52,567 nucleotides of DNA from a virus. Lineage: Duplodnaviria; Caudoviricetes. The position numbers were made by a program, and so were the translations under genes. A model generated the notes under the pieces. It was not told where the DNA came from, did not search any database, and worked only from the letters and a program-made list of their open reading frames with translations. The stretch is taken from positions 1-52,567 of IMG/VR virus record IMGVR_UViG_3300034104_007004. The stretch is one strand, 5' to 3'. This document shows positions 2,867 to 24,478 of this stretch, one piece after another (position 1 is the first letter of the stretch; each line of letters starts with the position of its first letter).

Positions 2867-2894
2867 CATAATATGATTTTAAAAAACTAACAAT

Positions 2895-3053
2895 ATGTCA
2901 AAAAAGTATAGTGATAAACGGAAAGAATCTTGGAATCCTGAGGATTGGCAAGGTCGAAAAAAAGAACAGGTTGAATTTAATTATTTGATGGTAGGTGTTT
3001 CATTGACTATCTTTTTGTTATCAATTGTAGCATCTTTATTATTTATTCTTTAA
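2895..3053 (+). CDS. Small membrane protein, 52 aa (below ORF-track cutoff)
   Basis: MSKKYSDKRKESWNPEDWQGRKKEQVEFNYLMVGVSLTIFLLSIVASLLFIL; C-terminal hydrophobic helix; fills the gap before 3057. Confidence 0.7.
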   Translation: MSKKYSDKRKESWNPEDWQGRKKEQVEFNYLMVGVSLTIFLLSIVASLLFIL

Positions 3054-3056
3054 TTT

Positions 3057-3689: not shown

Positions 3690-3873
3690 TTTACGAAATG
3701 AAAGTCCTTGGATTAAAGTAGATAAACAAACTTACCAAATTCTTCAAATTGGTAGTTGGGAAGAAATTAACGAATCCGAAATTAATGGACACACAATGAC
3801 ACTTTCAATTTATGATTTGATTTGTGAGGACCGTTACGACAAAAAACTTATCGACGGGGTAGAAAATTCCTGA
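3673..3873 (+). CDS. Hypothetical protein (likely start ATG 3673)
   Basis: MIRRPDLRNE...; short overlap with the upstream gene. Confidence 0.55.
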   Translation: MIRRPDLRNESPWIKVDKQTYQILQIGSWEEINESEINGHTMTLSIYDLICEDRYDKKLIDGVENS

Positions 3874-3874
3874 T

Positions 3875-3905
3875 TTTGAATATTCAGTTTTTCTTCGTAT
3901 ATTTG
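3875..3905 (+). promoter_or_regulatory. Bacteroidota primary-sigma promoter
   Basis: TTTG 3875-3878, 19-nt spacer, TATATTTG 3898-3905, ATG at 3910 (nearly leaderless). Confidence 0.65.
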
Positions 3906-3909
3906 TTGG

Positions 3910-4509
3910 ATGAAAGTTTTATTCTTAGATAACGATGGGGTAATTTGTCTCTCCAATAATTGGGGTGGACGAACCAAGAAATGGGCTAAATACCGTTCTA
4001 AGAACCCTTCTTCTCCTGAGTCAAAGTCCGAAGCTCCCGTTGATGTTAGATTCGATAATTTCGATGAAAAATCAGTTAGAATTCTGAATGAGATTTTGAA
4101 AAAGACAGGTTCTGAAATTGTTGTCAGTTCTGATTGGAGATTCCACGCTACTTTGAACGAGTTGGGTGAATATTACCTATCACAAGGTGTCTGCAAAAAA
4201 CCTATCGCAACGACCGATATGTTTAAAGATATATTTCCATCTGAATGGGCAAAACTGAGATTCAGGGCTGACTTAGAATTAGAAAGAAGTATGGAAATTC
4301 AACATTGGTTGGATAATCATTCAGAAGTGACTCATTGGGTTGCGGTTGATGATTTGAACATGTCAATTGAGTTCTTAAGTAGTTATTTTGACTCTAAGGA
4401 TGGTTCAGAGAACAAACCAGGTCTCACGAATTTTGTTTTGACACCCAACTCAAACGAAGGAATAAAACAATCAGGTGTAAAAGAAAAAATCCTTAATTTT
4501 TTGTTATGA
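3910..4509 (+). CDS. HAD-superfamily hydrolase, HAD_SAK_2 (Swiss-army-knife RNA repair) type
   Basis: KVLFLDNDGVI motif I, IVVSSDWR motif II, WVAVDD motif IV. Confidence 0.8.
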   Translation: MKVLFLDNDGVICLSNNWGGRTKKWAKYRSKNPSSPESKSEAPVDVRFDNFDEKSVRILNEILKKTGSEIVVSSDWRFHATLNELGEYYLSQGVCKKPIATTDMFKDIFPSEWAKLRFRADLELERSMEIQHWLDNHSEVTHWVAVDDLNMSIEFLSSYFDSKDGSENKPGLTNFVLTPNSNEGIKQSGVKEKILNFLL

Positions 4510-4694
4510 AGTACTTAACTTATTTGATAATAACTCTCGCTTTCTTATCTTTGATAGCGTACGTCATTTGGCTCACGGATAATCCAATGTGGATTCTTAT
4601 GGTGTTTTTCGCACCATTGTTCAAGGACCTCCTGAAAGATTCAGATGACGACAATGACGATGAACCAAATAAAAACACTCAATTAAATGGCTAA
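4506..4694 (+). CDS. Small two-TM membrane protein
   Basis: Two hydrophobic segments then an acidic tail; overlaps both neighbours. Confidence 0.65.
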   Translation: MKYLTYLIITLAFLSLIAYVIWLTDNPMWILMVFFAPLFKDLLKDSDDDNDDEPNKNTQLNG

Positions 4695-5337
4695 ATATAA
4701 ACTCCTTGTGAACGGATACGGATTAGACGGTTCCGCCCACACACTTACTGATGAAGAAGTTCAAACCATCCTATCTTTCAAAGAAAAAGAAGGTTATCAA
4801 AATTTGAGTGAGATGTACATGGACCTCCCTGAAATCTTGGAGGATTATGACCACTACACGACAAACTATTGGGTTACTACAACAACAATTGCAACTGAAA
4901 GTTTACACTTTGTGTTACTGAGTGAAAATGGCGAGGTTGTTTGGGATGTAAAACTTGATGAGTTAGACCGTCTCATGGATAAATTTGAGTATCCTGAAAA
5001 TGCCGAGGACCATGATAAGGATATTAATGGTGTTCCCTACGAAGGAAAAGAAAATATCTTACTTGTTTACGAAACCACCAAAGGCACAATGTTCGGGTTT
5101 GATATTGAGTCCGAAGAGGAACCAAAAGCAACTGATTTTGCTGTAACCATACAATCTATGGAAACACCGAAATACGAAGAGGAGTTGGTCTCAAAGGTAT
5201 TCTTCAAGGGTCAGGAGATGGAACGTAACTACGATGAGGAAAACTACCGTGGTAAGAGTCTGACTGTGGAACTCTTCACAATGGACGACCTTGACAACGA
5301 AGATGATTGGGATGATGATGACGATTCGGAAGAATAG
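4687..5337 (+). CDS. Acidic hypothetical protein
   Basis: 216 aa ORF, D/E-rich. Confidence 0.7.
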   Translation: MAKYKLLVNGYGLDGSAHTLTDEEVQTILSFKEKEGYQNLSEMYMDLPEILEDYDHYTTNYWVTTTTIATESLHFVLLSENGEVVWDVKLDELDRLMDKFEYPENAEDHDKDINGVPYEGKENILLVYETTKGTMFGFDIESEEEPKATDFAVTIQSMETPKYEEELVSKVFFKGQEMERNYDEENYRGKSLTVELFTMDDLDNEDDWDDDDDSEE

Positions 5338-5346
5338 TTGTCTTTA

Positions 5347-5431
5347 GGAAGGTTGGCAGAGTGGTAATGCAGCGGTTTGCTAAACCGTACATCAATAAAA
5401 TGATGCGTGGGTTCGAGTCCCTCACTTTCCG
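5347..5431 (+). tRNA. tRNA-Ser(GCT)
   Basis: GGAAGGT acceptor, anticodon arm GCGGT-TTGCTAA-ACCGT, long variable arm, TTCGAGT T-loop, G73. Confidence 0.92.
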
Positions 5432-5437
5432 CAAAAG

Positions 5438-5464
5438 AAAAGGGACCAATTGGTCCCTTTTTTT
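5438..5464. terminator. Bidirectional intrinsic terminator
   Basis: aaaagggacc-aatt-ggtccctttttt between convergent genes. Confidence 0.85.
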
Positions 5465-6191
5465 ATTCTTCAGTATTTTGTTCTTTTCTAAGAGGTCGAT
5501 AGAAGGTAATTAAATCGTAGAGTTTTTCCCTTGGTTGTTCGACGGATTCTCCTAATCCCAACATCCTTCCTGCTTTACCAAAAAATTTACCTAAACCCTG
5601 TTTTTTGGCAAAATTAAGAATTTTACCAATATTTTCAGATGGTTCTTTTTCACCAAAGACATTATATCCGTCTTCTTCTGAAGTCTTACTCCCTTCGGAT
5701 TTTTCTCCTGTGTTAGAAATATGGAGATGGTTGAAGTGATTACCACCAGTATTGGTTTGCCAAAAAATTACTTTTGGATGAGCGTTTTCATCATCTGGGT
5801 TCCACACATAACCCATCTTAACAAGGGCGTCTTTTAACTTGTTTCCCTTCTCTCTGAATTGAGAGTTTCCAGTGGTGGAACTATTTGCTCCTCCCGAATT
5901 TCTACCGTCTATCACGGATACATCCACGGCTTGGTTACTTTTGTGTCTACTACCTTTACCTGTCTGAGCAGAAGGGTGGTCAGTTTTTACTGTGGTGATT
6001 TTTGGTTTCAGACCTACAGTTTGGGCAGCTTGTTCCAAATCATCCAAAAGAGCTCTATTGATGAGGTCTCCTGAAATATCGTCGTCGATTTCAATATATT
6101 CATAGTCACCATCTGATAACTTAATTAAATCCTCATTGAGCTTCATTAAAGAACGCATCTTGGTTAACTCCTCACGTAAAAGTTCTTTCAT
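5463..6191 (-). CDS. M15-like (Hedgehog/DD-peptidase fold) zinc peptidoglycan peptidase
   Basis: SRHKSNQAVDV (SxHxxxxAxD) and HFNHLHIS zinc-ligand motifs; N-terminal LLREELTKMRSLM leader. Confidence 0.7.
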   Translation of the reverse strand: MKELLREELTKMRSLMKLNEDLIKLSDGDYEYIEIDDDISGDLINRALLDDLEQAAQTVGLKPKITTVKTDHPSAQTGKGSRHKSNQAVDVSVIDGRNSGGANSSTTGNSQFREKGNKLKDALVKMGYVWNPDDENAHPKVIFWQTNTGGNHFNHLHISNTGEKSEGSKTSEEDGYNVFGEKEPSENIGKILNFAKKQGLGKFFGKAGRMLGLGESVEQPREKLYDLITFYRPLRKEQNTEE

Positions 6192-6217
6192 AACTATAAA
6201 TACTCCGAAAAGAGGAA

Positions 6218-6294
6218 TGGAGCGAAAGAGGGGATTCGAACCCCCGACCCTCGGCGTGACAGGCCGATATTCTAACCAACTGAACTACCGCACC
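6218..6294 (-). tRNA. Chimeric tRNA-Asp(GTC) with a Gly-type 3' acceptor strand (possible pseudogene)
   Basis: 5' GGTGCGG, D arm, anticodon TCGGC-CTGTCAC-GCCGA and T arm are intact; 3' strand CTTTCGC-T-CCA does not pair with the 5' strand in register. Confidence 0.75.
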
Positions 6295-6300
6295 AAAAAT

Positions 6301-6380
6301 AAAGAGTCGAGGCAGGAATCGAACCTATCGCATCACATCGCAAAAAAGGACTGCTCTACCACTGAGCTACTCGACTCTTT
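6301..6380 (-). pseudogene. tRNA-like element lacking an anticodon stem
   Basis: 11-bp terminal stem aaagagtcgag/ctcgactcttt, canonical TAGCTCAGTGGTAGAGCA D arm, AGG-TTCGATT-CCT T arm; middle GTCCTTTTTTGCGATGTGATGCG cannot form a standard anticodon stem. Confidence 0.7.
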
Positions 6381-6401
6381 AAAAAAAGATACAACAAAAT
6401 T

Positions 6402-6788
6402 TCAAAAAACAAAATTTTCAGATAAATGTATTTTGTTTTGTTGATTATTCTTTGTTTTTTCAAGTCTGAGATAAAGACTTGTTGTAGTTTCATCAAATTT
6501 AGATGGTTCTACTTTATAACATATTTCTGTAATCGAATCAACTAAAATAATCCAATCAACAGTTTCCTTATAAGACACACCAGTTTCAGAGTAAAGTTTA
6601 CACCTAATAGTACCATTTTTTGGTGTAACAAACTTTACTTGAACTCTTTTTATCACACCAAATTTATCATCACAAATAATGTCATATGGACAATCATCAC
6701 CAAATGGTTTAGACACCCAATACCCTTTTTTTAGAAGGTGGGTCATAACCAATAACTCACCGATATCACCTTTTATATTAGTTCTCAT
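6402..6788 (-). CDS. PD-(D/E)XK endonuclease (PDDEXK_5 / intron-associated homing type)
   Basis: KGDIGELLV...KKGYWVSKPFGDDCPYDII...KRVQVK. Confidence 0.8.
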   Translation of the reverse strand: MRTNIKGDIGELLVMTHLLKKGYWVSKPFGDDCPYDIICDDKFGVIKRVQVKFVTPKNGTIRCKLYSETGVSYKETVDWIILVDSITEICYKVEPSKFDETTTSLYLRLEKTKNNQQNKIHLSENFVF

Positions 6789-6842
6789 ATTTTATAAATA
6801 TCGTAGAGTATAACAAAGGGTATGTAATGGTTTGATAAAAAG

Positions 6843-6915
6843 AGCGAAAGACCGGATTCGAACCGGCGACCCTGAGTTTGGTAAACTCATGCTCTACCAA
6901 CTGAGCTACTTTCGC
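6843..6915 (-). tRNA. tRNA-Gly with ACC anticodon
   Basis: GCGAAAG/CTTTCGC acceptor, U73, anticodon arm TGAGT-TTACCAA-ACTCA, T arm GCCGG-TTCGAAT-CCGGT. Confidence 0.9.
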
Positions 6916-6923
6916 AAAAAAGA

Positions 6924-6975
6924 AGACCCGGGCCCAACAAGCCGTGAAAACACGGAAGGGCCCTTTTGAAGGTCT
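6924..6975. other. GC-rich nested hairpin between the two tRNA-Gly genes
   Basis: agacc/ggtct encloses gggccc/gggccc, which encloses ccgtg-aaaa-cacgg. Confidence 0.55.
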
Positions 6976-6981
6976 AATTTG

Positions 6982-7054
6982 AGCGGTAAACAGGATTCGA
7001 ACCTGCGACCCCGTACTTGGAAGGAACGTGCTCTACCAACTGAGCTATTACCGC
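6982..7054 (-). tRNA. tRNA-Gly(TCC)
   Basis: GCGGTAA/TTACCGC acceptor, U73, anticodon loop CTTCCAA, T arm GCAGG-TTCGAAT-CCTGT. Confidence 0.92.
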
Positions 7055-7192
7055 TTATCTGAAATATGTTGTGTCACCATGGATATTGTCCCATTCACAA
7101 ACGAAGGTTGTCTCAGGTTTTTCTACCTTTTCGACTACTTCGTCCAACGTAAACATATAATCCAAGTGGTCCTCGGGTGATTTTGTATTCAT
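7055..7192 (-). CDS. Small hypothetical protein, 45 aa
   Basis: MNTKSPEDHLDYMFTLDEVVEKVEKPETTFVCEWDNIHGDTTYFR fills the spacer between tRNAs. Confidence 0.55.
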   Translation of the reverse strand: MNTKSPEDHLDYMFTLDEVVEKVEKPETTFVCEWDNIHGDTTYFR

Positions 7193-7209
7193 TTAGTTTA
7201 ATAATGTTG

Positions 7210-7281
7210 AGCCGGCGGAGGGATTTGAACCCCCGACCAGCGGTTTACAAAACCGCTGCTCTACCACTGAGCTACGCTGGC
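7210..7281 (-). tRNA. tRNA-Thr(TGT)
   Basis: GCCAGCG/CGCCGGC acceptor (one A-C mismatch), anticodon arm GCGGT-TTTGTAA-ACCGC, TTCAAAT T-loop. Confidence 0.92.
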
Positions 7282-7313
7282 TTATAAATTTAAATATATT
7301 TAGTCAAAGAACT

Positions 7314-7490
7314 TTATTCAGAAATGTCGCTTTTGTCAAGGTCTGAGAGGGAAATTTCTTGATTTTTCCACGCTTTCCAAACATCAAAGTCTTTAAGTTC
7401 CTCCAATACCTCTTCACGAAGGAGAATGTATCCTTCAGGAGCCACGGTTGAGAACCTGACTTTTTTTATTTGGTCACGTGTTGGTTTCAT
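7314..7490 (-). CDS. Small hypothetical protein, 58 aa
   Basis: MKPTRDQIKKVRFSTVAPEGYILLREEVLEELKDFDVWKAWKNQEISLSDLDKSDISE. Confidence 0.6.
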   Translation of the reverse strand: MKPTRDQIKKVRFSTVAPEGYILLREEVLEELKDFDVWKAWKNQEISLSDLDKSDISE

Positions 7491-7498
7491 AAATTTAG

Positions 7499-7572
7499 TA
7501 CCCCGAAAAGGATTCGAACCTTTGACCTACGCATTAGAAGTGCGTTGCTCTATCCAGCTGAGCTACCGAGGC
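7499..7572 (-). tRNA. tRNA-Arg(TCT)
   Basis: GCCTCGG/TCGGGGT acceptor, anticodon arm ACGCA-CTTCTAA-TGCGT, T arm AAAGG-TTCGAAT-CCTTT; TATATTTG promoter element at 7585-7592. Confidence 0.95.
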
Positions 7573-7604
7573 GTTTTACTTGTACAAATATAAGAACAAA
7601 TTCT

Positions 7605-7955
7605 TTATTTCCAAAACAATTGTACACAAAGAATCAAAAAACATAAAAACAAAGAAACTCCTGTTTTTAAAGTAATTGGTTCCTTCAAAATATACCAAGC
7701 CATTATGGAAAATACAGTAACCCCCAAGATAAATCCGATAATTCGGTTCGGCCATGTCTCACCGTCGTGTAAATCCACCATTTTTCTCGATGCCAAGATA
7801 ATGAGGTATCCCAAAGGGACACCCAAGATAGACATCAAAAAAGGGTGTTCCTTTATCCATTTATTCCACAGATGTCCTTGGAGTTGGTAGAAGGTAAACA
7901 CCTGTCCTAACACATAGACTATTAGGATAAATGCAATATCAAATAATTTTGTCAT
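7605..7955 (-). CDS. Four-TM membrane protein (SMR/DMT-like size and topology)
   Basis: 116 aa, four hydrophobic helices, ILKEPITLKTGVSL resembles DMT C-terminal motif. Confidence 0.6.
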   Translation of the reverse strand: MTKLFDIAFILIVYVLGQVFTFYQLQGHLWNKWIKEHPFLMSILGVPLGYLIILASRKMVDLHDGETWPNRIIGFILGVTVFSIMAWYILKEPITLKTGVSLFLCFLILCVQLFWK

Positions 7956-8515
7956 TTCAATTCATATTTTTGTATTTGAACCCATTTGGATTTGTAGTTC
8001 AAATTATTGGATGTGTAACGGGCGTAGTGGTTGACCATAGGATGTCCTGTGTTGTAGAATCCAAGAGCCAAATCCCACCTATTGTACATTCTTTTGAGTT
8101 TTGTGAGCATTTTACAAGAGATGGTTACATTGAGTTCCAAATCCTCTCTGAGCTCCTTAGAGGAGAGTCTACGACCCGCATATTTGTGAGACCATCGGGT
8201 GATAATCTGCATGGGTCCTTGAGCTCCAGCTACGGAGGTTCGGTATGGGTTGTAGTTCCAATGGAACGGACCTCTGTAACCTGTTTCAAGATATGCCACG
8301 TTGTACAAGATATGTTTTGGTATATCGTACTCCTTTGATTTTTTTTCTAAGAGATGGTACATAAAAATTGAGGTGGGGGAGTTTGAATCACTCCCCATCT
8401 GATACAACTCATCTTCAAAAGTTTTATTAACTTGTTGATAGAGGAAATAACCCAAACCTAAGATTCCGAAAACAATCAAAAAGATAATCGTTTTGAATGT
8501 TTGTCGTGAACTCAT
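7952..8515 (-). CDS. Membrane-anchored lytic transglycosylase (SLT domain); likely start 8515
   Basis: AYLETGY catalytic Glu, AGAQGPMQI, WDLALGFYNTG motifs; N-terminal TM helix. Confidence 0.85.
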   Translation of the reverse strand: MSSRQTFKTIIFLIVFGILGLGYFLYQQVNKTFEDELYQMGSDSNSPTSIFMYHLLEKKSKEYDIPKHILYNVAYLETGYRGPFHWNYNPYRTSVAGAQGPMQIITRWSHKYAGRRLSSKELREDLELNVTISCKMLTKLKRMYNRWDLALGFYNTGHPMVNHYARYTSNNLNYKSKWVQIQKYELK

Positions 8516-8832
8516 TTTTCGGGGGCGTTGTGTTGACCCCAAAGGTTCTTAGCGTACACATTGAAGATAACCGTACCAATTCGGTCTTCCAAGATGATGT
8601 AGGTTCCTTTGGTTTTATCGATAATCATAAAATTATTATTTTCATCGATTGCCACGGTCACTTCATTCCGTGTGATAAACTCAGGCTTTCCGAGTTTGCT
8701 TAGTTCTTTTAGGGTGTTGTAGTAGTAACCCAAGGTAAAGAAGACCCCCATTCCCAAAATGATATAAAGGTAGTTTAGTAATACCTTGATACCACTTTTG
8801 AGTTTGTTCCAAAATTCAAGTAATAGTTCCAT
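8512..8832 (-). CDS. Single-TM membrane protein
   Basis: 106 aa with N-terminal hydrophobic helix; ATGA overlap with the SLT gene. Confidence 0.7.
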   Translation of the reverse strand: MELLLEFWNKLKSGIKVLLNYLYIILGMGVFFTLGYYYNTLKELSKLGKPEFITRNEVTVAIDENNNFMIIDKTKGTYIILEDRIGTVIFNVYAKNLWGQHNAPEK

Positions 8833-8835
8833 TTT

Positions 8836-9486
8836 TTAGTTTGTTTGGTTTATTAATTTATCATAAATTTCTGACAGTCGTTTTGTTTTTCCTTCGATAA
8901 CCGTGGTAAATTGATTAAGACCGTTGGTCCCACTGTTACCTCTTTCGTTATTGTGGGCGAAAAAAACTCCATTATTGTAAAGTTTATTCGGAGTGGAGTA
9001 TAGTTTACCCTCGAACTCCAAAAACCCATCACTTGTAAGTTTGACATCGTACTCTGTTTTTTTGTACACACGTTTTAGTTCAAGGTTTGGATATTTCTCT
9101 GAAAGTAAAAGAAGACGCTCGTCACGGGAATCCTGTTTTTCGGGTATAAGAACATTCAAATCCCCAATAGAAAAACCTTTTTTAGACATGTAGTTACTCA
9201 CAAACGATTCAATAGTTTTTTTATCGTCAATAAAAAACTCAGTAATGAAATCCGTGGTTCTGATTCTGATATCTTTTAAAAGGGTGTGGAGTTCTTTTTC
9301 GATTTCACTCATTTCATCAACCCACCATATTTTGAAAATCTTGACTTGGTAACTGGTATTGGTCCGACCCAAAGAACTCTGTCTTTCTGCGGGATTTATT
9401 GTTTTTCCAATTTTTATTTCAGATAAATCAACATCCTTGTTTAGGTGAGTATATTTTGCCAAATAAATGTATCCTGATTTTTCCAT
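8836..9486 (-). CDS. GIY-YIG (T5orf172/MUG113-like) nuclease with a RAMA-like C-terminal domain
   Basis: GYIYLA...IKIGKTINPAERQSSL...IEKELH...EFF; C-terminal GFLEFEGKLYSTPNKL...NG. Confidence 0.7.
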   Translation of the reverse strand: MEKSGYIYLAKYTHLNKDVDLSEIKIGKTINPAERQSSLGRTNTSYQVKIFKIWWVDEMSEIEKELHTLLKDIRIRTTDFITEFFIDDKKTIESFVSNYMSKKGFSIGDLNVLIPEKQDSRDERLLLLSEKYPNLELKRVYKKTEYDVKLTSDGFLEFEGKLYSTPNKLYNNGVFFAHNNERGNSGTNGLNQFTTVIEGKTKRLSEIYDKLINQTN

Positions 9487-9490
9487 ATCT

Positions 9491-9522
9491 CAAATATAGG
9501 GGAAAGATTCGGTGTGGTCAAA
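9491..9522 (-). promoter_or_regulatory. Bacteroidota primary-sigma promoter
   Basis: Minus strand TTTG (9522-9519), 20-nt spacer, TATATTTG (9498-9491), ATG at 9486. Confidence 0.65.
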
Positions 9523-9548
9523 AAAAATCCCGACCTAGCTCGGGAAAA
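9520..9548 (-). terminator. Intrinsic terminator after tRNA-Ser(TGA)
   Basis: Minus strand tcccga-gctagg-tcggga followed by a T run. Confidence 0.7.
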
Positions 9549-9559
9549 CACATCGGATG

Positions 9560-9646
9560 TGGAGGCTCAGGGATTCGAACCCCGGGTACCCTCTCAAGTA
9601 CGCTTGTTTTCAAGACAAGTCCAATCAACCACTCTGGCAAACCTCC
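9560..9646 (-). tRNA. tRNA-Ser(TGA)
   Basis: GGAGGTT/AGCCTCC acceptor, anticodon arm CTTGT-CTTGAAA-ACAAG, long variable arm GTACTTGAGAGGGTAC. Confidence 0.92.
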
Positions 9647-11802: not shown

Positions 11803-11846
11803 ACCCCCCAACGTTCACGAGTATCTTTAATTACCTATAGCGACAG

Positions 11847-12254
11847 TGGAGGTGGCGGGAATCGAACCCGCGTCTTGCTCAGTTTACCCATAAAGGACTA
11901 CATGCTTAGGTCAGGGTTTGTTTAACCCTCCGAAATATTTGGTTCCTTTTTTTCCATCGTTACCAACAACTGTGGAGGATTCACTTAAATCGGTAGAACC
12001 CTAAACGAGACCTTTATTCCTTTTAGGGTAGAAACCACACCGTGGGGACTTCTGTTTCTAGGTTATATGTCCATCGACCCATTGTTGCTGAAGCCTTAGG
12101 CTACAGTAACTTCCTCAGCAGAGAGAAGACCCACTGCCTCGAGTTTTGCGAAAGTATCGCCTTTTGATTGTTGCTTCCGTAGATTAAGGTGATAGGAAAC
12201 ATCTCACCGCATGCCCCGTATGACTAACCCTGCCAATCAATACCGGTCACCCCC
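11847..12254 (-). ncRNA. ssrA: tmRNA
   Basis: 5' GGGGGTGACCGGTATTGA; 3' GACGCGGGTTCGATTCCCGCCACCTCCA; acceptor with G3:U70 and A73; internal tag ORF 12161-12096. Confidence 0.93.
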
Positions 12255-12273
12255 ATTATTTTCAAAGAACAAT

Positions 12274-12360
12274 AAGAAATCACTTTCGCCCCCTGTATAG
12301 ACATTACGTCAGATGCTTAAGGTCAGCCTTAACTATTAAGGGAGCCACCTGTGATTTCTT
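12274..12360 (-). ncRNA. Candidate 87-nt structured ncRNA (possibly 6S-like)
   Basis: Closing stem aagaaatcac/gtgatttctt, inner stem gctccct/agggggc, hairpins ttaagg-ctga-ccttaa and gcat-ctgacgta-atgt; TATCTTTG -7 element just upstream (12371-12364). Confidence 0.6.
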
Positions 12361-12377
12361 ATACAAAGATAAGTATT

Positions 12378-13112
12378 TTATTCCAAACTATCCAACTCAT
12401 TTTTCCAAATTGCACGTGTAACTAATTCAAATTTTGGTTTTTGATTGTTATAATAATACAAGGCTAAACTTTTACGTGTTATACTTTCAGGACATTTAAG
12501 TGAATGGGGATGTCCATGAGGTGCTTTATCGATACTAAACATTACAACCCTATTGGAAATTGGCGATATTTTTTTACAAGGACCTGACATGTCTTTCCAC
12601 CAAAGTTCTAAATCACCATCCCATTGTTCATCCCAATAAGAGTTGAGATACACAAGTAAGTTGATATGTCTGAAAAGGTTTTCATTTATGTGACTATCAT
12701 TGAAATCGTGGTGTATTTCTAATCTCCCATCTCTACCTGTTTGGTGATACGCAGCATTTGTGTATTCATTTGATTCATGTGTAAGATTTTGAAATCCTGT
12801 TATCTCAGATACGAGGTCCAAAAAATATTTTGAATTCAAAAATTCAATAATCTCTTTCATTGTTGGAAGTAAGTTATTGAAATTATAGATTTGTTTTTTG
12901 TTCACTTGACTCTCATGTTGGTCATAGTCACCTCCCCCGACAAATCTCCAATTTTCAGATGGGTTTGATGAAATGAATTCAACTTCATCGAGAAGACGAT
13001 TGATGACATCTTCACGGAAAAAATCATCCATGACAATATGGTTGAAAGGAATATCTGTTTTGTATGCCCGAGAATATTCCGATATGTTTCTGAGAGTTTT
13101 ATTGCTTAACAT
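12378..13112 (-). CDS. 2OG-Fe(II) oxygenase (prolyl-4-hydroxylase-like)
   Basis: PFNHIVMDDFF, HHDF (HxD), NLLVYLN..W..QWDGDLELW, PHGHP, RKSLA. Confidence 0.88.
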   Translation of the reverse strand: MLSNKTLRNISEYSRAYKTDIPFNHIVMDDFFREDVINRLLDEVEFISSNPSENWRFVGGGDYDQHESQVNKKQIYNFNNLLPTMKEIIEFLNSKYFLDLVSEITGFQNLTHESNEYTNAAYHQTGRDGRLEIHHDFNDSHINENLFRHINLLVYLNSYWDEQWDGDLELWWKDMSGPCKKISPISNRVVMFSIDKAPHGHPHSLKCPESITRKSLALYYYNNQKPKFELVTRAIWKNELDSLE

Positions 13113-13225
13113 AGTTTCAAGATAAGTATTTATTGTGATATGTCAAAACCAATACAGACAATAATTTAAGATTCAGACTATTTTATCAAAAGAAACTATT
13201 GTCAGATTCATTGAACAAATCTTAA

Positions 13226-13257
13226 CTTGTAATTGTTGATAATTTTCATTATATTTG
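13226..13257 (+). promoter_or_regulatory. Bacteroidota primary-sigma promoter
   Basis: CTTG 13226-13229, 20-nt spacer, TATATTTG 13250-13257, ATG at 13273. Confidence 0.6.
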
Positions 13258-13272
13258 TGAAAAGATTATATC

Positions 13273-14103
13273 ATGACTCCTGAAAAATTTGAACTTCTTA
13301 AGAAAGTTCTATCGGTTCCAACCAAAACCTACAAAGAAGGTTTGATGGTTGAATTCATTACCAATTGGCTTTCTGAAAAAGGGATTCCACATTATGTTGA
13401 CGAACACTTGAATGTATACGCAACAAAACAATCAGAGCAGAATGTTGAATGGTTTCCTTGTGTCATTTCTCACACCGATACGGTTCATCACTTGGAAGAA
13501 ATCAATGTCAAGGAGGAGTATCTTCCGAACGCACAAGGAGATGTTAAGTTATCCCTGAAAGCATATAACGACCACGGAAAACCTACGGGAATCGGTGGTG
13601 ATGACAAAGCTGGCGTGTTTGCCTGTCTAACCCTATTGGAGGAACTCCCCGATTTAAAGGCGGCATTCTTTGTATCAGAAGAAACAGGTTGTCACGGTTC
13701 GATGAAAGCCGACCCCAAGTTTTTCAAAAATGTTGGTTATGGTATTCAGTTCGACGCCCCCGAGAATTGGATGGTCACCGAATATTGTTTCGGTCAACAA
13801 CTCTTCGAACGTGAATCCAAATTTTTTGAGGTCTGTGACCATATCCTAACCGAAGGTACAGGTGGTAATCAAAAATATATGGTTCACCCCTATACTGATG
13901 TCTACTCTCTACGAGGAATGTTTGACTTCCAATGTATCAATTTCTCAATCGGTTACTACGATTACCACACCGCAAACGAATATGTTGTTGTGGATGACGT
14001 TGAAAACGGAATCGATATGGGTAGGAAAATGATTGATTCTCTTGGTTGTAATCTTCACTTCAAAGAGAAAGAAAAACCAAAATACAGAAATCACGTTTGG
14101 TAA
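13273..14103 (+). CDS. M28/M20-family zinc peptidase
   Basis: SHTDTVH, GGDDKAG, EETG, YHTANE metal-ligand motifs. Confidence 0.85.
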   Translation: MTPEKFELLKKVLSVPTKTYKEGLMVEFITNWLSEKGIPHYVDEHLNVYATKQSEQNVEWFPCVISHTDTVHHLEEINVKEEYLPNAQGDVKLSLKAYNDHGKPTGIGGDDKAGVFACLTLLEELPDLKAAFFVSEETGCHGSMKADPKFFKNVGYGIQFDAPENWMVTEYCFGQQLFERESKFFEVCDHILTEGTGGNQKYMVHPYTDVYSLRGMFDFQCINFSIGYYDYHTANEYVVVDDVENGIDMGRKMIDSLGCNLHFKEKEKPKYRNHVW

Positions 14104-14104
14104 T

Positions 14105-14135
14105 AAAAAAGGGGGATTTTCGTCCCCCTTTTCTT
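14105..14135. terminator. Bidirectional intrinsic terminator
   Basis: aaaaaaggggga-ttttcg-tccccctttt between convergent genes. Confidence 0.8.
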
Positions 14136-16133
14136 TTACTTACCGAGTTTTATTTCCTCATTCTCAACTTTGAGTTTGTACTTCTTTCCTTCCTTGATTT
14201 TCTCGGTGAGAACCAATTCTGAAATATAGTCTTCAATCTTGTCTTGGATTGCCCGTTTGATAGGACGTGCTCCGTAGACCTCATCGAAACCGATTTTGGA
14301 AATGTAATCAACCAAGGTTTGGTCGTAACTGAATTCGTACTTCAACTCCTTCATACGTCCCATCAGTTTGTTGAGTTCCAAACTAACGATTTGGTTGATG
14401 TTCTCCTTATTCAAGGTCTTGAACACGATAGTGTCATCGATACGATTCAAGAATTCAGGGGAAAAGAAATGTTTCATTTCCTTCATCAGGATTTGTTTCT
14501 TAGCCTCCTCGTTGGAGTACTTGTTGGATGAGAAACCAATACCCGAACCAAAGTCTTGAAGTTTCCTAACACCAAGGTTTGTGGTCATGATAATAAGGGT
14601 GTTCTTGAAGTTGATTTTACGACCGAGTGAATCCGTGACATGACCATCATCAAGAACCTGAAGAAGGATTGAAAAAATGTCTTTATGGGCTTTTTCAACC
14701 TCATCAAACAAGATTACACAGTAGGGTTTGTTTTTAACTTGTTCGGTAAGTTGTCCACCCTCTTCATAACCTACATACCCTGGGGGTGCTCCAACCAAAC
14801 GAGATACGGTGTGTTTCTCTTGGTATTCACTCATGTCCATTCGGATAAGGGCGTCTTCAGAACCAAACATCTCTTTGGCAATTTGTTTAGCCAAGTGTGT
14901 TTTACCCACCCCAGTTGAACCCAAGAAGATAAACGAACCAATCGGTCGGTTGGGGTCTTTGATTCCAATACGATTACGACGAATAGACTTGACGATTTTC
15001 TCGATTGCCTCGTCCTGTCCGATAACCTTTCCTTGAATGGACTTATCCATGTTGATAAGTGCTTTGGTGTCGTCAATGGACATCTTATTCACTGGAATTT
15101 TGGTCATCGAGGAAACCACATCATAGACTTGTTCTGCTGAGATGGGATTACGAGTAGAAGCAAACTGTTCCTCGTACTTCTTTTTTTCAGCATCGAGTCG
15201 TCCCAAGACTTTACGTTCTTTGTCACGGAGTTCTGCTGCTTGTTCGTAATTCTGACGTCTTACAACATCCATCTTCTGTTGTTTCACATCAGCAGCTTCC
15301 TTCTTGAGTTTCTCGATGGACTCAGGAACCTTTTGGTCGGTTTGGGAACGGGCACCAACCTCATCCAAGATATCGAATGCTTTGTCAGGGAACTCACGGT
15401 CTGTGATGTAACGGTCAGCTAGTTTGACACAGAGTTCAACAATCTCATCCGAGTAAGAAACCTTATGATAGGATTCGTACTTATCACGGATATTCTTGAG
15501 AATCTCGATGGTTTCAGAAACCGTTGATGGGTCAACGATAACCTTTTGGAATCGACGTTCAAGAGCGCCATCCTTTTCAAAAGATTTGCGGTATTCATCC
15601 AAGGTGGTAGCACCGATACATTGAAGTTCACCCCGAGCAAGTGCTGGTTTGAAAATGTTGGAACCATCCAAAGAACCGGATGAATTACCTGAACCAATCA
15701 AGGTGTGAATCTCATCGATAAAGATGATAATATTGGGATTGTTTTGAAGTTCTTCCAAGATAACCTTGAGTCGCTCCTCAAACTGCCCACGATACTTTGT
15801 ACCGGCAACCACAGCGGTTAGGTCCAAGTTAACAATTCGTTTGTCTAACAAATTTTTGGGACACTCCCCTTCGACAATCTTCATCGCCAAACCCTCAACG
15901 ATAGCGGTTTTACCACTACCAGGTTCACCCAAGATAATTGGATTGTTCTTCTTTCGACGTGAAAGAATCTGAGCAATACGGAGGATTTCCCTCTCCCTGC
16001 CAATGACAGGGTCAAGTTTTCCTTCGGTCGCCAACTTGTTCAAATCCCGTGAGAAATTATCCAACACAGGGGTTCCCGATTCAGATTTCTTTCTGCTGGT
16101 GGTTTTGTCGTCGTCGTCCATTGTTTCGTTCAT
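14136..16133 (-). CDS. clpC: ClpC-type Hsp100 ATPase lacking the N-terminal Clp-repeat domain
   Basis: Two AAA+ modules ([14 protein letters not shown] and [15 protein letters not shown]), UVR-like M-domain [11 protein letters not shown], ClpP-docking IGF loop (GSGIGFS); AAA1 ([11 protein letters not shown]) begins at about residue 21. Confidence 0.92.
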
Positions 16134-16187
16134 AGTATTTGATTTTTTTACAAAGGTTAATCAAAATTTGGACAATTCCAAATCTTT

Positions 16188-16231
16188 TGACAATCTGTCA
16201 TATGAAAATAAATTTTCCTGACATTTTGTCA
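16188..16231. promoter_or_regulatory. Two TGACA-N3-TGTCA palindromic operator/enhancer sites
   Basis: TGACAatcTGTCA at 16188-16200 and TGACAtttTGTCA at 16219-16231, 31 bp apart. Confidence 0.7.
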
Positions 16232-16242
16232 GTAATTTGATT

Positions 16243-16258
16243 TTGGTACGTAACTTGA
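16243..16258 (+). promoter_or_regulatory. Sigma54-like -24/-12 promoter
   Basis: TTGGTACG-TAAC-TTGA, i.e. GG-N10-GA versus consensus TTGGCACG-N4-TTGC; ATG at 16298. Confidence 0.5.
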
Positions 16259-16297
16259 CTATCATACCACAAAGATAAACAAAAAATATTTATCATT

Positions 16298-16756
16298 ATG
16301 AAAAACAGAAAAAACTTTTTTAACGCATGGGAAGACTTCGATGAAATCTTCCGTCAATTTTTTGGTCACGAATCAATGATTCGTGGAGATAGAGAAGTTG
16401 AAAAGGGTAAAGACAAAAACGGTGAATGGACTAAAAATACATACACCTCAGAAGACGGTCAAATCCAAATCCACAACTTTGTTAGAACTTCAACCTTCCC
16501 TGAGGAATTTATTAACATGTTTGCGAAACCAAGTAAGAAAACTAACACAATCGAAAACCTCAAACGTGAATTAGATAGAGCAGTGGAGAATGAAGATTTC
16601 CTCTTGGCAATCAAAATCCGTGACATGATTAAGGAAAAAGAAAGTAATAAAGATATTGTTGAAAAACTCGAGAAAGACCTAAAGAACTCGATTGAAAAAC
16701 AAGATTTTGAAACTTCGATAAAAATTAGAGAAGAACTCAAAAAATACCAAAACTAA
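16298..16756 (+). CDS. Double UVR (UvrB/UvrC coiled-coil) motif protein, candidate ClpC adaptor
   Basis: LDRAVENEDFLLAIKIRDMI and LKNSIEKQDFETSIKIREEL. Confidence 0.8.
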   Translation: MKNRKNFFNAWEDFDEIFRQFFGHESMIRGDREVEKGKDKNGEWTKNTYTSEDGQIQIHNFVRTSTFPEEFINMFAKPSKKTNTIENLKRELDRAVENEDFLLAIKIRDMIKEKESNKDIVEKLEKDLKNSIEKQDFETSIKIREELKKYQN

Positions 16757-16759
16757 TAG

Positions 16760-16786
16760 AAACCCTCACATAAAGTGGGGGTTTTT
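16760..16786 (+). terminator. Intrinsic terminator
   Basis: aaaccctcac-ataaa-gtgggggttttt. Confidence 0.7.
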
Positions 16787-16799
16787 AATATTTATTGGT

Positions 16800-17147
16800 A
16801 TGTACGAAAAACTTTTAGATAAATACCTCCAAAATTCGGTCACATGGCAAAATGTCAAGGAGGCTTACATCGCCATACGTTCAGAACTTAAAAGACTCGG
16901 ATATTCCGAAGAAACACTTGAGCGTGTCGACCATATATCAGCCGAGTTAGTTAAACAACAAATGATTTTTGGACACGAATTAAAGCAACTAAGAAAAGAG
17001 TTCAAAAGTATCTTTGGACTTGACGACCACGAACGGGTGTCTGTTTACTTAGAGAACAAAATAAAACCAATAAATGACTTATTCCCTCTGAACGATGTCG
17101 ATAACGAAAGAAGAAATACAAGGGACAAAAATCCTGAACGAGATTAA
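16800..17147 (+). CDS. Hypothetical protein
   Basis: 115 aa ORF preceded by TATTTAT. Confidence 0.65.
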   Translation: MYEKLLDKYLQNSVTWQNVKEAYIAIRSELKRLGYSEETLERVDHISAELVKQQMIFGHELKQLRKEFKSIFGLDDHERVSVYLENKIKPINDLFPLNDVDNERRNTRDKNPERD

Positions 17148-17337
17148 ATCCTCAAATATGGTTCGTAGTGAGTACGACACCTCAACAAAAAAAATGATTG
17201 TTGAATTCAGCAATGGAAGTAAATATGAGTATTTGGAAGTACCACACAAGGTGTACACTCAATTTAGAATGTCGGAATCACAAGGTAAATTTTTTACCAT
17301 CAATATTTCCAAAAAATTCCAATACAACAAACTCTAA
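17095..17337 (+). CDS. KTSC-domain protein
   Basis: IKSSNMVRSEYD....MIVEFSNGSKYEYLEVP..VY..F..SESQGKFF. Confidence 0.88.
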   Translation: MSITKEEIQGTKILNEIKSSNMVRSEYDTSTKKMIVEFSNGSKYEYLEVPHKVYTQFRMSESQGKFFTINISKKFQYNKL

Positions 17338-17357
17338 ACCATTCGTATTTATTAAGG

Positions 17358-18110
17358 ATGAGTGACGAGACGAACATCCTTGGCAGTTTTGGTTTACAAG
17401 ATACACTTAATCCCAAAATTTGGGAAAACGCTGATAGCGCCAAAGACTCACGTATGAAACCAAAAGTACGTGAAGCCCTTATGAAAATTGCGGAAAAATT
17501 TCAAGGGGATTTATCTGAAGACTTAAAAGTGGATGATGTAATATTGACAGGTTCATTGGCAAACTTTAATTGGTCAAGATACTCAGATTTTGATTTACAC
17601 TTGGTTATTGATTATAAAGAATTCAAAAATCAGTCGGAATTATATGAAGAACTTTTTCAACTGAAAAAACAACTCTTCAATAACAAACATGACATCAAAA
17701 TTTTCGGATATGAAGTTGAGTTGTATCCACAAGACGCTGAAGAACAACATTTCAGTAGTGGAGTATATTCAGTACAGAATGACAAATGGGTTAAGACACC
17801 CTCTAAGAAAACGGAAGAAATTGATAGGGAGACTTTGAGGAGTAAGGCCAATTCTTGGAAACAAAAAATTGAGACTTTAATTTCCGACATAAAAAAAAAT
17901 GGATTAGAAAAATCTGAGACCAAACTAAAAACTTTTAAAGATAAATTAAAAGAGTATAGAACCGCTGGTTTGGAAAAGGGCGGTGAGTTTTCTTACGAAA
18001 ATTTGGTCTTCAAATACCTCCGTAGGTCAGGTCTTATAGAAAAACTTTATGACACAGTCAACAAACAATCTGATAAAGAACTATCAGTTGAGGTAAGAAA
18101 AGTAGATTAA
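17358..18110 (+). CDS. Pol-beta-superfamily nucleotidyltransferase
   Basis: LTGSLANFNWSRYSDFDLHLVID (GS...DxD) plus VELY third carboxylate. Confidence 0.8.
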   Translation: MSDETNILGSFGLQDTLNPKIWENADSAKDSRMKPKVREALMKIAEKFQGDLSEDLKVDDVILTGSLANFNWSRYSDFDLHLVIDYKEFKNQSELYEELFQLKKQLFNNKHDIKIFGYEVELYPQDAEEQHFSSGVYSVQNDKWVKTPSKKTEEIDRETLRSKANSWKQKIETLISDIKKNGLEKSETKLKTFKDKLKEYRTAGLEKGGEFSYENLVFKYLRRSGLIEKLYDTVNKQSDKELSVEVRKVD

Positions 18111-18177: not shown

Positions 18178-19026
18178 ATGGCAACCATAACATATCTAAT
18201 AGCCCCTTGTGCCGGTGGGTCGGCAGTAACCGTTGAGTTTAGTGCGAGCACATTACCCGTAGTTGGAGGAAACTATTATTTGAACTTTACGGGTGATACA
18301 ACACCAGGTTGTTATGAGGTTGCTGATACCGCCGAACCAGGTACAGGAACTGATGAGGTTACAGGTGCTTTAGGAACTAATTATGGTGATTGTGTAACGT
18401 GTTTAGAAGCAAACGTAACTCCAACTCCTACCCCGACATCCACAGTCACCCCCACCCCAACAGTAACATCTACGAGAACTCCAACACCAACACCAACGAG
18501 AACGGTTACTCCAACAGTCACGAGTTCGATTACACCAACACCTTCGGTTACAAGTAGTGTGACACCTACAGTTACGAGAACTTCCTCGCCAACTCCTACT
18601 CCTTCAGTTACAACAACCGTTACACCATCAATAACTCCAACTCGAACTGTTACTCCATCTGTAACATCTTCACTAACACCAACACCATCAGTAACTTCAA
18701 GTGTTACCCCAACCCCATCTGTGACCCCAACGAGAACAGTCACACCTACGGTGTCTCCAACAAGCACTGTTACCCCAACTGTGACTAGTACTTCTACTCC
18801 CACCCCAACACCAACAATGACACCAACACCATCAAACTTTGGTATTTTTGAGGTTGATGTTCAATATACCTATTATGATTGTTACACTTGTTCGGGTGAT
18901 ACAATTTCAAGACCAGTTCCACACCCTGTGGATTGGGTACCTGTTGGCCCTAACGGACAACGCCAAGGCACGGTAATCGATATGAGTGCTGTTGCTCTTG
19001 GTGGATTTAACGGATTAAATAACTAA
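18178..19026 (+). CDS. Pro/Thr/Ser-rich (mucin-like) putative virion protein
   Basis: About 140 aa TPTPSVT low-complexity tract flanked by Cys-containing domains (YGDCVTCL, YDCYTC). Confidence 0.85.
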   Translation: MATITYLIAPCAGGSAVTVEFSASTLPVVGGNYYLNFTGDTTPGCYEVADTAEPGTGTDEVTGALGTNYGDCVTCLEANVTPTPTPTSTVTPTPTVTSTRTPTPTPTRTVTPTVTSSITPTPSVTSSVTPTVTRTSSPTPTPSVTTTVTPSITPTRTVTPSVTSSLTPTPSVTSSVTPTPSVTPTRTVTPTVSPTSTVTPTVTSTSTPTPTPTMTPTPSNFGIFEVDVQYTYYDCYTCSGDTISRPVPHPVDWVPVGPNGQRQGTVIDMSAVALGGFNGLNN

Positions 19027-22714: not shown

Positions 22715-24478
22715 ATGACTAAAGAACAACTAATTATTGAGTATAAAAAATGTCTTAAGAGTACCCCCTATGCTCTTAGGACTTATTTACAAACCTACGA
22801 TAACACAATTTCTAGGTATGTTCCTTTGGAGTTGTTTTCTGACCAATTTGAGTTGGTAAATGACTATGAAAATTTTAATGAAAATATTGCCCTGAAATAC
22901 AGACAAGCAGGTGTTTCTACCGTGACAGCCGCTTGGGCTAGTAAAAGACTTGCTTTTGCTCGTAAAGAAAAACCTGAAAAAGTTTTGATTATTGCAAACA
23001 AACTTGACACCTCTGTTGAATTTGCAAATAAAATTAGGGCATTTATCGAACAATGGCCCAGTTGGGTTGGTATTGGATTTTCTGGCGAAAAAAATGCCGC
23101 AAAACACTATAAATTGAATAATGGTTGTGAGGTCAAGGCGGTTGCCACTTCTAAGGACGCCCTACGTGGATACACACCTACGATTCTTATATTTGACGAA
23201 GCGGCTTTTATCGAAGCCGACAGTGATTTTTGGCCGGCTTGTATGGCGTCACTATCTACGGGTGGTAAAGTTATCGTTATTTCAACCCCTAACGGATTCG
23301 ACCCTATCTACTACGAAATCTACGACCAAACACTTCGTGGAATGAATGATTTCAAAATTACTGAAATGTATTGGTTCCGTGACCCACGTTATACAAAAGA
23401 TTTGTATATGGTAAAGTGTAACGACATTGTTCACTATCTTCTTAACAAAGAGGAATATCCAAAAGACGTCGTTGTGGATTTATCCCATGAGAATCACCGC
23501 GAAAGAACTCTGACCGATTTACAAGCATTCATTGCCGACGGATACAAACCATGTTCTTCTTGGTTTGAGAGTATGGTAAAAAAATTCAAATACGACAAAC
23601 GTAAGGTTGCGCAGGAATTGGAGTGTAACTTTTTAGGTTCTGGCGACAACGTATTTGACTCTCAGTTGGTTCAGACAATCATGAAAAATGATGTTAGGGA
23701 ACCGGCAGCCAAACTTATTGGTGGACAACTTTGGATTTGGAAAGAACCTGAGAACGGACACAAATATGTCATGGGAATTGACGTTTCCCGTGGTGATTCC
23801 GAGGATTTTTCATGTATTGAAATTATTGATTTTGACAGTAGAGAACAGGTATTGGAATTTGTTGGAAAAGTCCCACCTGATATTTTAGCGGAGATTGGTT
23901 ACAAGTGGGGTAATATGTACAACGCACTTTGTGTTACGGATTTGACTGGAGGAATGGGTGTCGCTACTTCAAGAAAATTACAAGAACTTGGGTACGAGTT
24001 GTTCTACTATGATGGGGTGGATATGACAAATTTGTGGAAGTTTGACCCAAGAGTCAAAGACAAAATACCTGGAATTAATTTCAATAGTAAAAGAGTCCAA
24101 ATTATTGCGGCATTCGAAGAAAACATTCGACATGAGTTTAAAGTTAGGAGTAGTCGTTTGATTAATGAAATGGGTACATTTGTTTACATCAATGGAAGAC
24201 CTGACCACCAAAGAGGTCATCATGATGATTGTATCATGTCTATCGCCATCGCTCTTTATGCCGCGGAGGCGGCTTTTCCATCTTTGGTAAAGGTTACCAA
24301 CCATACCAAAGCGATGATTAATTCATGGGCGACCCATGTGAATGAAAATACTGAAAGGTCTGATTTTTTTAATCCAATGATTCCACAATTCCCGAATCAA
24401 AATGGAATGGGTAGACCAAACCAACAAGTATCTCGTGAGGATTATCAGAAATACGGATGGTTATTTGGTATCCGTTAG
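22715..24478 (+). CDS. terL: Terminase large subunit (T4 gp17-like)
   Basis: KYRQAGVST Walker A, LIFDEAAF Walker B, ISTPNG motif III, GIDVSRG...D nuclease acid residues, HHDDCIM. Confidence 0.95.
   Translation: MTKEQLIIEYKKCLKSTPYALRTYLQTYDNTISRYVPLELFSDQFELVNDYENFNENIALKYRQAGVSTVTAAWASKRLAFARKEKPEKVLIIANKLDTSVEFANKIRAFIEQWPSWVGIGFSGEKNAAKHYKLNNGCEVKAVATSKDALRGYTPTILIFDEAAFIEADSDFWPACMASLSTGGKVIVISTPNGFDPIYYEIYDQTLRGMNDFKITEMYWFRDPRYTKDLYMVKCNDIVHYLLNKEEYPKDVVVDLSHENHRERTLTDLQAFIADGYKPCSSWFESMVKKFKYDKRKVAQELECNFLGSGDNVFDSQLVQTIMKNDVREPAAKLIGGQLWIWKEPENGHKYVMGIDVSRGDSEDFSCIEIIDFDSREQVLEFVGKVPPDILAEIGYKWGNMYNALCVTDLTGGMGVATSRKLQELGYELFYYDGVDMTNLWKFDPRVKDKIPGINFNSKRVQIIAAFEENIRHEFKVRSSRLINEMGTFVYINGRPDHQRGHHDDCIMSIAIALYAAEAAFPSLVKVTNHTKAMINSWATHVNENTERSDFFNPMIPQFPNQNGMGRPNQQVSREDYQKYGWLFGIR

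Follow-up and report, generated by a model that had tools for sequence, protein, structure and literature searches.

ClpC of Firmicutes such as Staphylococcus aureus and Bacillus subtilis, which is served by the adaptors MecA and McsB, is composed of two AAA rings, a short UVR-containing M-domain with an aromatic residue at its tip, and a loop that docks on ClpP. MecA, phospho-arginine and cyclic peptides act at its N-domain, which also stabilizes the resting state (PMC12583610, cited here and below for its accessible text). In engineered S. aureus ClpC lacking this domain (delta-N), the resting state is destabilized and ClpP binding is allowed, but the rings pair head-to-head via their M-domains, giving inactive rods with ClpP; the delta-N F436A variant degrades SsrA-tagged green fluorescent protein on par with MecA-activated wild type, the SsrA degron being read by the pore and not by the N-domain (PMC12583610). 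A phage protein that retunes ClpC-ClpP has also been described, namely SPO1 Gp53, an adaptor-like modulator of B. subtilis ClpCP that targets the full-length ClpC of the host (PMC6873191, accessible text). Here we analyzed a 52,567-base stretch of a Caudoviricetes virus (IMG/VR record IMGVR_UViG_3300034104_007004, positions 1–52,567, hereafter the window), in which the phage brings its own ClpC, naturally devoid of the N-domain, beside a divergent gene for a small protein with two UVR motifs; relatives bring their own ClpP as well. It is possible that the region is a proteostasis block that specifies a self-contained phage ClpC-ClpP machine, beyond the control of host N-domain adaptors, with the double-UVR protein as its co-chaperone or regulator; we give this reading an even chance.

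The phage clpC gene (14,136–16,133, minus strand) codes for a ClpC-type two-ring AAA+ unfoldase of 665 residues. Pfam recognized AAA, AAA_lid_9, AAA_2 and ClpB_D2-small domains in this protein and gave no match to the N-terminal Clp repeat domain (Clp_N, PF02861). Its best solved relative is S. aureus ClpC (6em8_A), with which it aligns over residues 152–802 of 818, starting directly after the N-domain, and its match to the PHROG 4871 profile covers positions 159–754 of 764. From the post-N-domain linker to the C-terminus, the protein is about 52% identical to Firmicutes ClpC. Ten codons before the ATG there is an in-frame TGA, and only 164 bp separate clpC from its divergent neighbor, so that no N-domain is hidden by a frameshift. 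In addition, Clp_N was found in none of five related records searched, one of them rated 100% complete, and each of the five had one single AAA_2 protein. An earlier reading of this DNA, made from the sequence alone (the sequence-only reading), had described the protein as having both AAA modules, a UVR M-domain and an IGF loop but no N-domain, which Pfam and the alignments bear out; its caveat was an N-domain encoded upstream and masked by a frameshift or assembly error, of which the frameshift can be dismissed on the above grounds.

As judged by alignment, the N-less architecture is kept in every aligned member of the clade, and the 120 clusters listed for this clade are 598–685 residues long. 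Contigs of 136 and 204 kb carry a ClpC that is 98% identical to that of the window. Among the 150 best clusters at 50% identity, 11 had at most 740 residues and a match that began within the first 80, and the remainder had an N-domain-sized extension. Distant huge phages (L001–L004) also encode an N-less ClpC of about 700 residues. The phage clade carrying N-less ClpC is very abundant. The M-domain coiled coil (residues 268–335; 15,129–15,332, minus strand) contains a UVR motif (20.2 bits) with Tyr296 at its tip; this residue aligns to S. aureus F436 in the 6em8_A alignment, and Tyr was kept in all eight commonest variants among 62 aligned clade sequences. The ClpP-docking loop (residues 527–536, with GIGF at 531–534; 14,526–14,555, minus strand) aligns with the loop region of S. 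aureus ClpC and reads G-[IVM]-G-F in the eight commonest variants listed from the same 62 sequences, in all of which pore loop 1 is identical (62/62) and both Walker A/B pairs are conserved. In place of the N-domain, unlike in Firmicutes ClpC, there is a conserved tail of about 20 residues, acidic and then basic. Residues 1–22 follow the pattern M-N-[DE]-x-M-D-D-[DNE]-[DE]-K and continue with a Lys-rich stretch; the tail is kept regardless of which gene lies next to clpC (see below), and a similar one occurs in the huge-phage homologs of L001 and L002.

The divergent neighbor of clpC (16,298–16,756, plus strand) encodes a virus-only protein of 152 residues with two UVR helical hairpins (residues 83–113 and 119–152). 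The first UVR motif scored 42.3 bits in Pfam, and the second, when scanned alone, scored 20.5 bits (E 4e-4), just below the cut-off of 21.5; the double-UVR protein divergent from clpC that had been noticed from the sequence is therefore real, with its second motif slightly under the formal limit. The protein has no PHROG family and its Atlas look-alike clusters are all viral. Residues 1–81 had no Pfam match and no alpha-crystallin domain was detected there. A comparison with the small heat-shock proteins (sHSPs) of sister phages by hhalign (probability 18.5%, E 0.0013, 41 N-terminal columns) gave a weak likeness that was not significant. The AlphaFold2 model comprises an N-terminal helix, three strands and a three-helix hairpin array, with a mean predicted local distance difference test score of 67.5. 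Foldseek of this model against PDB returned nothing at E <= 0.001, and a wide VIA-align search gave generic helical-hairpin matches only (best Z 8.1), in which McsA (8wtb_B, Z 5.9) and the ClpB M-domain region (4hse_A, Z 5.8) stood among many unrelated bundles. Complex prediction for ClpC residues 1–352 with the UVR protein, based on 27-row alignments, gave a score of 0.15 (mark 0.32), which counts neither for nor against an interaction.

McsA, encoded in the ctsR-mcsA-mcsB-clpC operon, is likewise a small UVR protein whose gene lies beside clpC, and one source annotates a homolog of the phage UVR protein as McsA. However, the phage protein has two UVR motifs where McsA has one, has no Cys zinc-finger part and no McsB partner. 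With the McsA equivalog NF053706 it scored 26 bits against a cut-off of 210, the match being limited to residues 81–117, and the McsB arginine kinase (PF00217) was found in none of the five related records, the complete relative included, whereas the B. subtilis control matched. The identification as McsA was thus rejected. Small UVR open reading frames (ORFs) in the four huge phages with N-less ClpC were also considered as counterparts and discarded; all five that were inspected have a single C-terminal UVR motif, and none adjoins clpC in W01 or W02. Three of these five appear to resemble Bacteroidota proteins that combine a nuclease with a single UVR motif.

To describe the position occupied by the UVR gene, two sets of loci were compared. 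Relatives of the UVR protein are encoded in 106 viral stretches, of which 80 were kept, and clpC was directly upstream and divergent in 78 of these, the other two being cut at the contig end. When loci were instead selected by ClpC (the best 80 of 251 viral stretches), the slot divergent from clpC held a UVR gene in 33 cases, HSP20 in 29 and HSP70 (DnaK) in four; in 11 the occupant was something else or none was recognizable, and three had no flank. The occupants were confirmed by Pfam and, on a quick tree built from 61 distinct ClpC sequences, change at least 11 times. No member of the UVR family was found in five of five sHSP-type contigs and no HSP20 in five of five UVR-type records, the complete genome included, which amounts to mutual exclusion of UVR and sHSP over these 10 contigs. 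The sequence-only reading had proposed a co-conserved pair; this holds within part of the clade but not across it, as the UVR gene is present in only 33 of the 80 ClpC-selected loci.

Pairs of a small chaperone and an Hsp100 protein are known from mobile heat-resistance loci, where sHsp20 is found with ClpG or ClpK. The sister phages with an sHSP gene beside clpC are arranged likewise. ClpG and ClpK differ, however, in having extra N-domains and no ClpP loop (for ClpG, accessible text of PMC8129007), and the window has the UVR protein in place of the sHSP.

The region between clpC and the UVR gene (16,134–16,297, 164 bp) is a control region shared by the two divergent genes, each strand having promoter-like hexamers. 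It contains two copies of a palindrome of the form TGACA-N3-TGTCA, TGACAATCTGTCA at 16,188–16,200 and TGACATTTTGTCA at 16,219–16,231, spaced by 31 bp, and these are the only exact copies in the 52.5-kb window. When up to one mismatch was allowed, the palindrome was present in the corresponding intergenic regions of 26/26 UVR-type, 18/22 HSP20-type and 2/2 HSP70-type loci, in only 1/9 empty-slot loci, and in 2/400 background windows. In the loci that were examined, no copy lay close to ClpP or SmpB. Terminator-like hairpins delimit the pair, one between the peptidase gene and clpC (14,107–14,132, readable on both strands) and another, of 13 pairs, directly 3' of the UVR gene (16,757–16,787, plus strand). 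Together, these data support the view that the UVR gene codes for a virus-only protein at a dedicated, co-regulated position beside clpC. Both genes are without a Shine-Dalgarno sequence and have A-rich leaders (16,134–16,160 and 16,270–16,297), and in many relatives a conserved CCTTTGTAAAAA-like motif precedes the ATG of clpC by about 20 nt. Presumably, such leaders and this motif are compatible with Bacteroidota-type expression signals.

The window extends only 14.1 kb past the 3' end of clpC, and in relatives ClpP is encoded 16–30 kb past this point (25–28 kb in the three nearest). ClpP was detected in 8 of 10 UVR-type related contigs searched (172–195 bits), namely in all five large related contigs (172–191 bits) and in three of the five contigs with the most similar ClpC (83–84% identical); the two UVR-type contigs lacking it extend only about 5 and 20 kb beyond clpC. 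The ClpP family of this clade is encoded in 315 viral stretches, and three of the four huge phages L001–L004 also had ClpP matches. The possibility that this ClpP is a head protease was rejected: it matches ClpP models far better than the head-maturation model (63 bits against a cut-off of 120), and the window has a separate T4 gp21-type protease. SmpB was found in one of five related records, which was the 100% complete one, the other four being 43–56% complete. It is unlikely that this phage hijacks host ClpP, because its relatives encode ClpP at a distance that falls beyond the window edge and the complete relative has SmpB; the phage probably has a ClpP of its own. The exact place of this gene could not be assigned, since nucleotide matching of the left end of the window with ClpP loci gave tRNAs only and the proteins encoded between the tmRNA and ClpP show little synteny. 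The phage ClpP proteins (seen in L085, L086 and L089) have a conserved N-terminal extension of about 50 residues (MNIGQEFQNYY...MTPYILEE...), and in some relatives the gene lies beside one for an HNH-type protein.

An uninterrupted transfer-messenger RNA (tmRNA, ssrA) gene is located at 11,844–12,254 (minus strand). It matched Rfam RF00023 over the full length of the model (positions 1–374) with 80.7 bits against a gathering score of 47, and has a G3:U wobble in its acceptor stem. Homologs are present at related loci, and the tag frame was set by aligning 35 distinct tmRNAs from these loci. In the window, the frame (12,096–12,161, minus strand) starts with the resume codon GGC and comprises 21 codons followed by a stop (GGC GAT ACT ... 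GTA GCC TAA), which give the peptide GDTFAKLEAVGLLSAEEVTVA. All 35 distinct relatives have an open tag frame of 21–22 codons that starts with Gly; their nucleotides vary, and the last residue is Ala in 33 and Ile in two. The tag is thus conserved as a peptide. By comparison, ARAGORN tags of five Bacteroidota genomes were DNNNSYALAA, GENNFALAA, GEVDYALAA, GENNYALAA and one doubtful call, i.e. four of five consist of 9–10 residues with the ALAA ending that host proteases read. The phage tag begins at the same position and with the same Gly, but it is twice as long and has no ALAA ending; it is unlike the tags of the likely hosts. The tmRNA with an atypical tag that had been proposed from the sequence therefore stands.

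ARAGORN made no tmRNA call in the window and detected only one of the 35 distinct clade tmRNAs, that of L049, in which it read the same tag frame, whereas Rfam and nhmmer recovered all 35. With 34/35 missed, phage tmRNA counts obtained by ARAGORN probably fall short in lineages of this type. The tmRNA gene is covered by contigs from three freshwater RNA libraries, including a 370-nt contig that shows no differences over 11,877–12,246. In one RNA run, contigs also span the intergenic region, the UVR gene and sections of clpC; DNA carry-over is possible for all of these. Some stretches of the window, for instance 12,468–13,302, have no contig cover. In some relatives (L048, L039, L015 and probably L006), an insert of about 200 nt splits the tmRNA gene in the T-loop, and the 3' remainder lies 177–208 nt downstream. 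The insert in L048 (4,451–4,667, minus strand) is a group I intron (RF00028, 75.1 bits). Phage-encoded tmRNA-SmpB has already been reported for huge phages (PMC7162821), and the tmRNA of the window and the SmpB of its complete relative agree with this. What is added here is that the tag has been defined and compared with tags of the host phylum. That report used ARAGORN, and in its main text the words 'Clp', 'chaperone' and 'protease' do not occur (PMC7162821).

The phage ClpC has the same architecture as engineered S. aureus delta-N ClpC (PMC12583610), from which it differs in being a natural, conserved gene product with Tyr at the tip position and in having a candidate releasing factor next to it. 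As it amounts to a natural delta-N construct with the tip aromatic retained, we read the block as a self-contained ClpC-ClpP system, and the delta-N experiments make both gating of the M-domain by the UVR protein and substrates of SsrA type plausible (PMC12583610). N-less ClpC rings might be self-inhibited by head-to-head pairing via their M-domain tips. Having the same aromatic residue at their own tips, the UVR hairpins could cap those of the M-domain and release active hexamers; substrates recognized by the pore, e.g. proteins bearing the phage tag, would then be degraded by phage ClpP, and the neighboring peptidase may finish the peptides. In general, the divergent partner (UVR protein, sHSP or DnaK) may supply either release from M-domain self-inhibition or substrate delivery. 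These elements do not have the same standing. That the UVR protein is functionally tied to ClpC is slightly favored by the evidence, that tagged proteins are the substrates is a tentative suggestion, and that the UVR protein acts by capping the M-domain, an idea taken from the delta-N analogy, is more doubtful still. An extended version, in which the 21-residue degron is read only by N-less ClpC and phage ClpP through the pore to form an orthogonal channel, with the UVR protein as the gate and the sHSP or DnaK of sister phages as its equivalents under the same operator, appears rather improbable.

It should be noted that several observations weigh against a self-contained machine regulated by the UVR protein. 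ClpP had no match in the 52,567 bases of the window, just as the sequence-only reading had stated, and none was found in two sHSP-type relatives (149 kb and 187 kb) that extend more than 30 kb past clpC. For this phage, both ClpP and SmpB have to be inferred from relatives whose ClpC is 76–84% identical. The peptidase, clpC, UVR, KTSC and nucleotidyltransferase genes and a 397-aa gene form one collinear block, so that the adjacency of clpC and the UVR gene is weak evidence on its own. No slot gene was recognizable in 11 of the 77 loci with sufficient flank, and ClpC can apparently do without one. The M-domain does not hold a larger share of all ClpC differences when the phages compared differ in their slot occupant (0.168 versus 0.172), which gives no sign of the M-domain adapting to its partner. 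Finally, the likeness of the UVR motifs to the M-domain is that of the generic Pfam consensus and no specific mimicry.

These points bear on three other explanations. The sequence-only reading had assumed that the phage supplies only the unfoldase, which docks on host ClpP and redirects host proteolysis, with the UVR protein as a switch. The absence of ClpP from the window and from the two larger sHSP-type relatives fits this idea, as do the docking loop conserved across the clade and a 735-kb huge phage that has N-less ClpC and no ClpP match. However, ClpP occurs in most UVR-type contigs, with both exceptions ending close to clpC, the window stops well short of where the nearest relatives carry the gene, and the family is widespread in viral stretches; we consider recruitment of host ClpP improbable. 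The earlier idea of an unfoldase with a partner thereby gained comparative and literature support, and its host-ClpP part did not. An unlikely but somewhat better alternative is that ClpC serves mainly as a ClpP-independent disaggregase or foldase for the large phage proteome or for virion assembly, with the slot protein (UVR protein, sHSP or DnaK) holding substrates for it; the UVR protein would then be a derived, sHSP-like holdase and no M-domain regulator. The slot does alternate with the classic refolding partners sHSP and DnaK, the block is 6 kb from a T4-like terminase-portal-capsid module, B. subtilis ClpC disaggregates with MecA (PMC8129007, accessible text), and the UVR protein shows the N-terminal hhalign likeness to sHSPs (E 0.0013) mentioned above. 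Against this, the probability of that match is only 18.5% over 41 columns, no alpha-crystallin domain was recognized in the UVR protein, the listed ClpC variants retain their ClpP-docking loop, and relatives do encode ClpP. The UVR gene could also be unrelated cargo at a variable insertion spot, placed beside clpC by collinearity only, and we regard this as no more likely than a disaggregase. Such a view would account for a slot that is variable and sometimes empty, for the collinearity of the whole neighborhood and for an M-domain that does not covary with the occupant, but it does not explain why all three recognizable occupants are chaperone-related or share ClpC's own motif, why they share a palindromic element that is nearly absent at empty slots and absent elsewhere, or why UVR and sHSP exclude one another in the contigs checked.

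With regard to a self-contained ClpC-ClpP machine, we found no report of an N-less phage ClpC with a UVR partner in the literature, supplementary tables being outside the search. N-less ClpC has hitherto been a laboratory construct, used to demonstrate how the N- and M-domains restrain ClpC; in these phages it is natural and conserved, and its gene has that of a candidate releasing factor as neighbor. As the lineage also carries ClpP, tmRNA and SmpB, it offers a natural test bed for M-domain-based control of Hsp100 proteins and allows testing whether viruses build private protein-degradation channels. The swappable slot, in which UVR, sHSP and DnaK genes are found with one palindromic element, makes it possible to ask by comparison what ClpC requires when it has no adaptor. 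In addition, surveys that depend on ARAGORN likely under-count phage tmRNAs of this kind.

The window is a fragment of a T4-related freshwater jumbo phage of roughly 310 kb. It represents about 17% of the genome by the CheckV estimate, and the genome size follows from the complete relative, whose record has 309,177 bases. The T4-type structural module includes the terminase large subunit (22,715–24,478), portal (24,518–26,380), gp21-type prohead protease (27,840–28,556) and gp23-type capsid protein (30,463–32,256). The host is probably a member of Bacteroidota. The DnaK of sister phages is closest to Bacteroidota, mostly Flavobacteriales (78 of the 80 best loci, by record title). These features fit the moraphages, which are large freshwater phages of 200–307 kb with T4-like structural genes and Bacteroidota hosts; their core genes include a 'ClpA' ATPase and a 'putative peptidase', DnaK, DnaJ or HSP20 occurs in some, and their DnaK is nearest to Flavobacteriales (PMC12619734). 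This comparison was made by shared traits only. In the accessible text of that description, 'tmRNA' does not occur and 'Clp' occurs twice, with Clp as a row of the core-gene table, and no missing N-domain, UVR partner or slot is mentioned (PMC12619734).

The peptidase gene (13,273–14,103, plus strand) encodes an M20-type (MH clan) metallopeptidase of 276 residues, supported by PF01546 (26.6 bits, cut-off 24.6) and PHROG 4191 'peptidase' (E 6e-33); its metal ligands were judged by eye only. Thus, the nearby peptidase, earlier assigned to M28/M20, is of M20 type. Of 80 related loci, 64 have a homolog in the vicinity of clpC, and the other 16 end at or inside clpC. A 2OG-Fe(II) oxygenase gene (12,378–13,112) is located between the tmRNA and the peptidase gene; it appears to be variable cargo outside the conserved block, because a homolog was seen only in the closest relative, L006.

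On the other side, three genes (16,800–18,110) follow the UVR gene in nearly all relatives. They encode a 115-aa protein, an overlapping KTSC-domain protein (17,095–17,337) and a protein with a nucleotidyltransferase fold (17,358–18,110; PHROG 36119, unknown function). Next to them, a 282-aa protein (18,178–19,026) consists largely of Thr-Pro-rich repeats (TPTPT, TVTPS and similar) and is partly conserved in relatives; a 140-aa ORF opposite this repeat gene is spurious. Between the tmRNA and the left end of the window, nine tRNA genes (Ala, Ser x2, Asp, Lys, Gly x2, Thr and Arg) are spread over 2,793–9,646, and inside this cluster is a gene for a HAD_SAK_2 domain protein of RNA-repair type (3,910–4,509).

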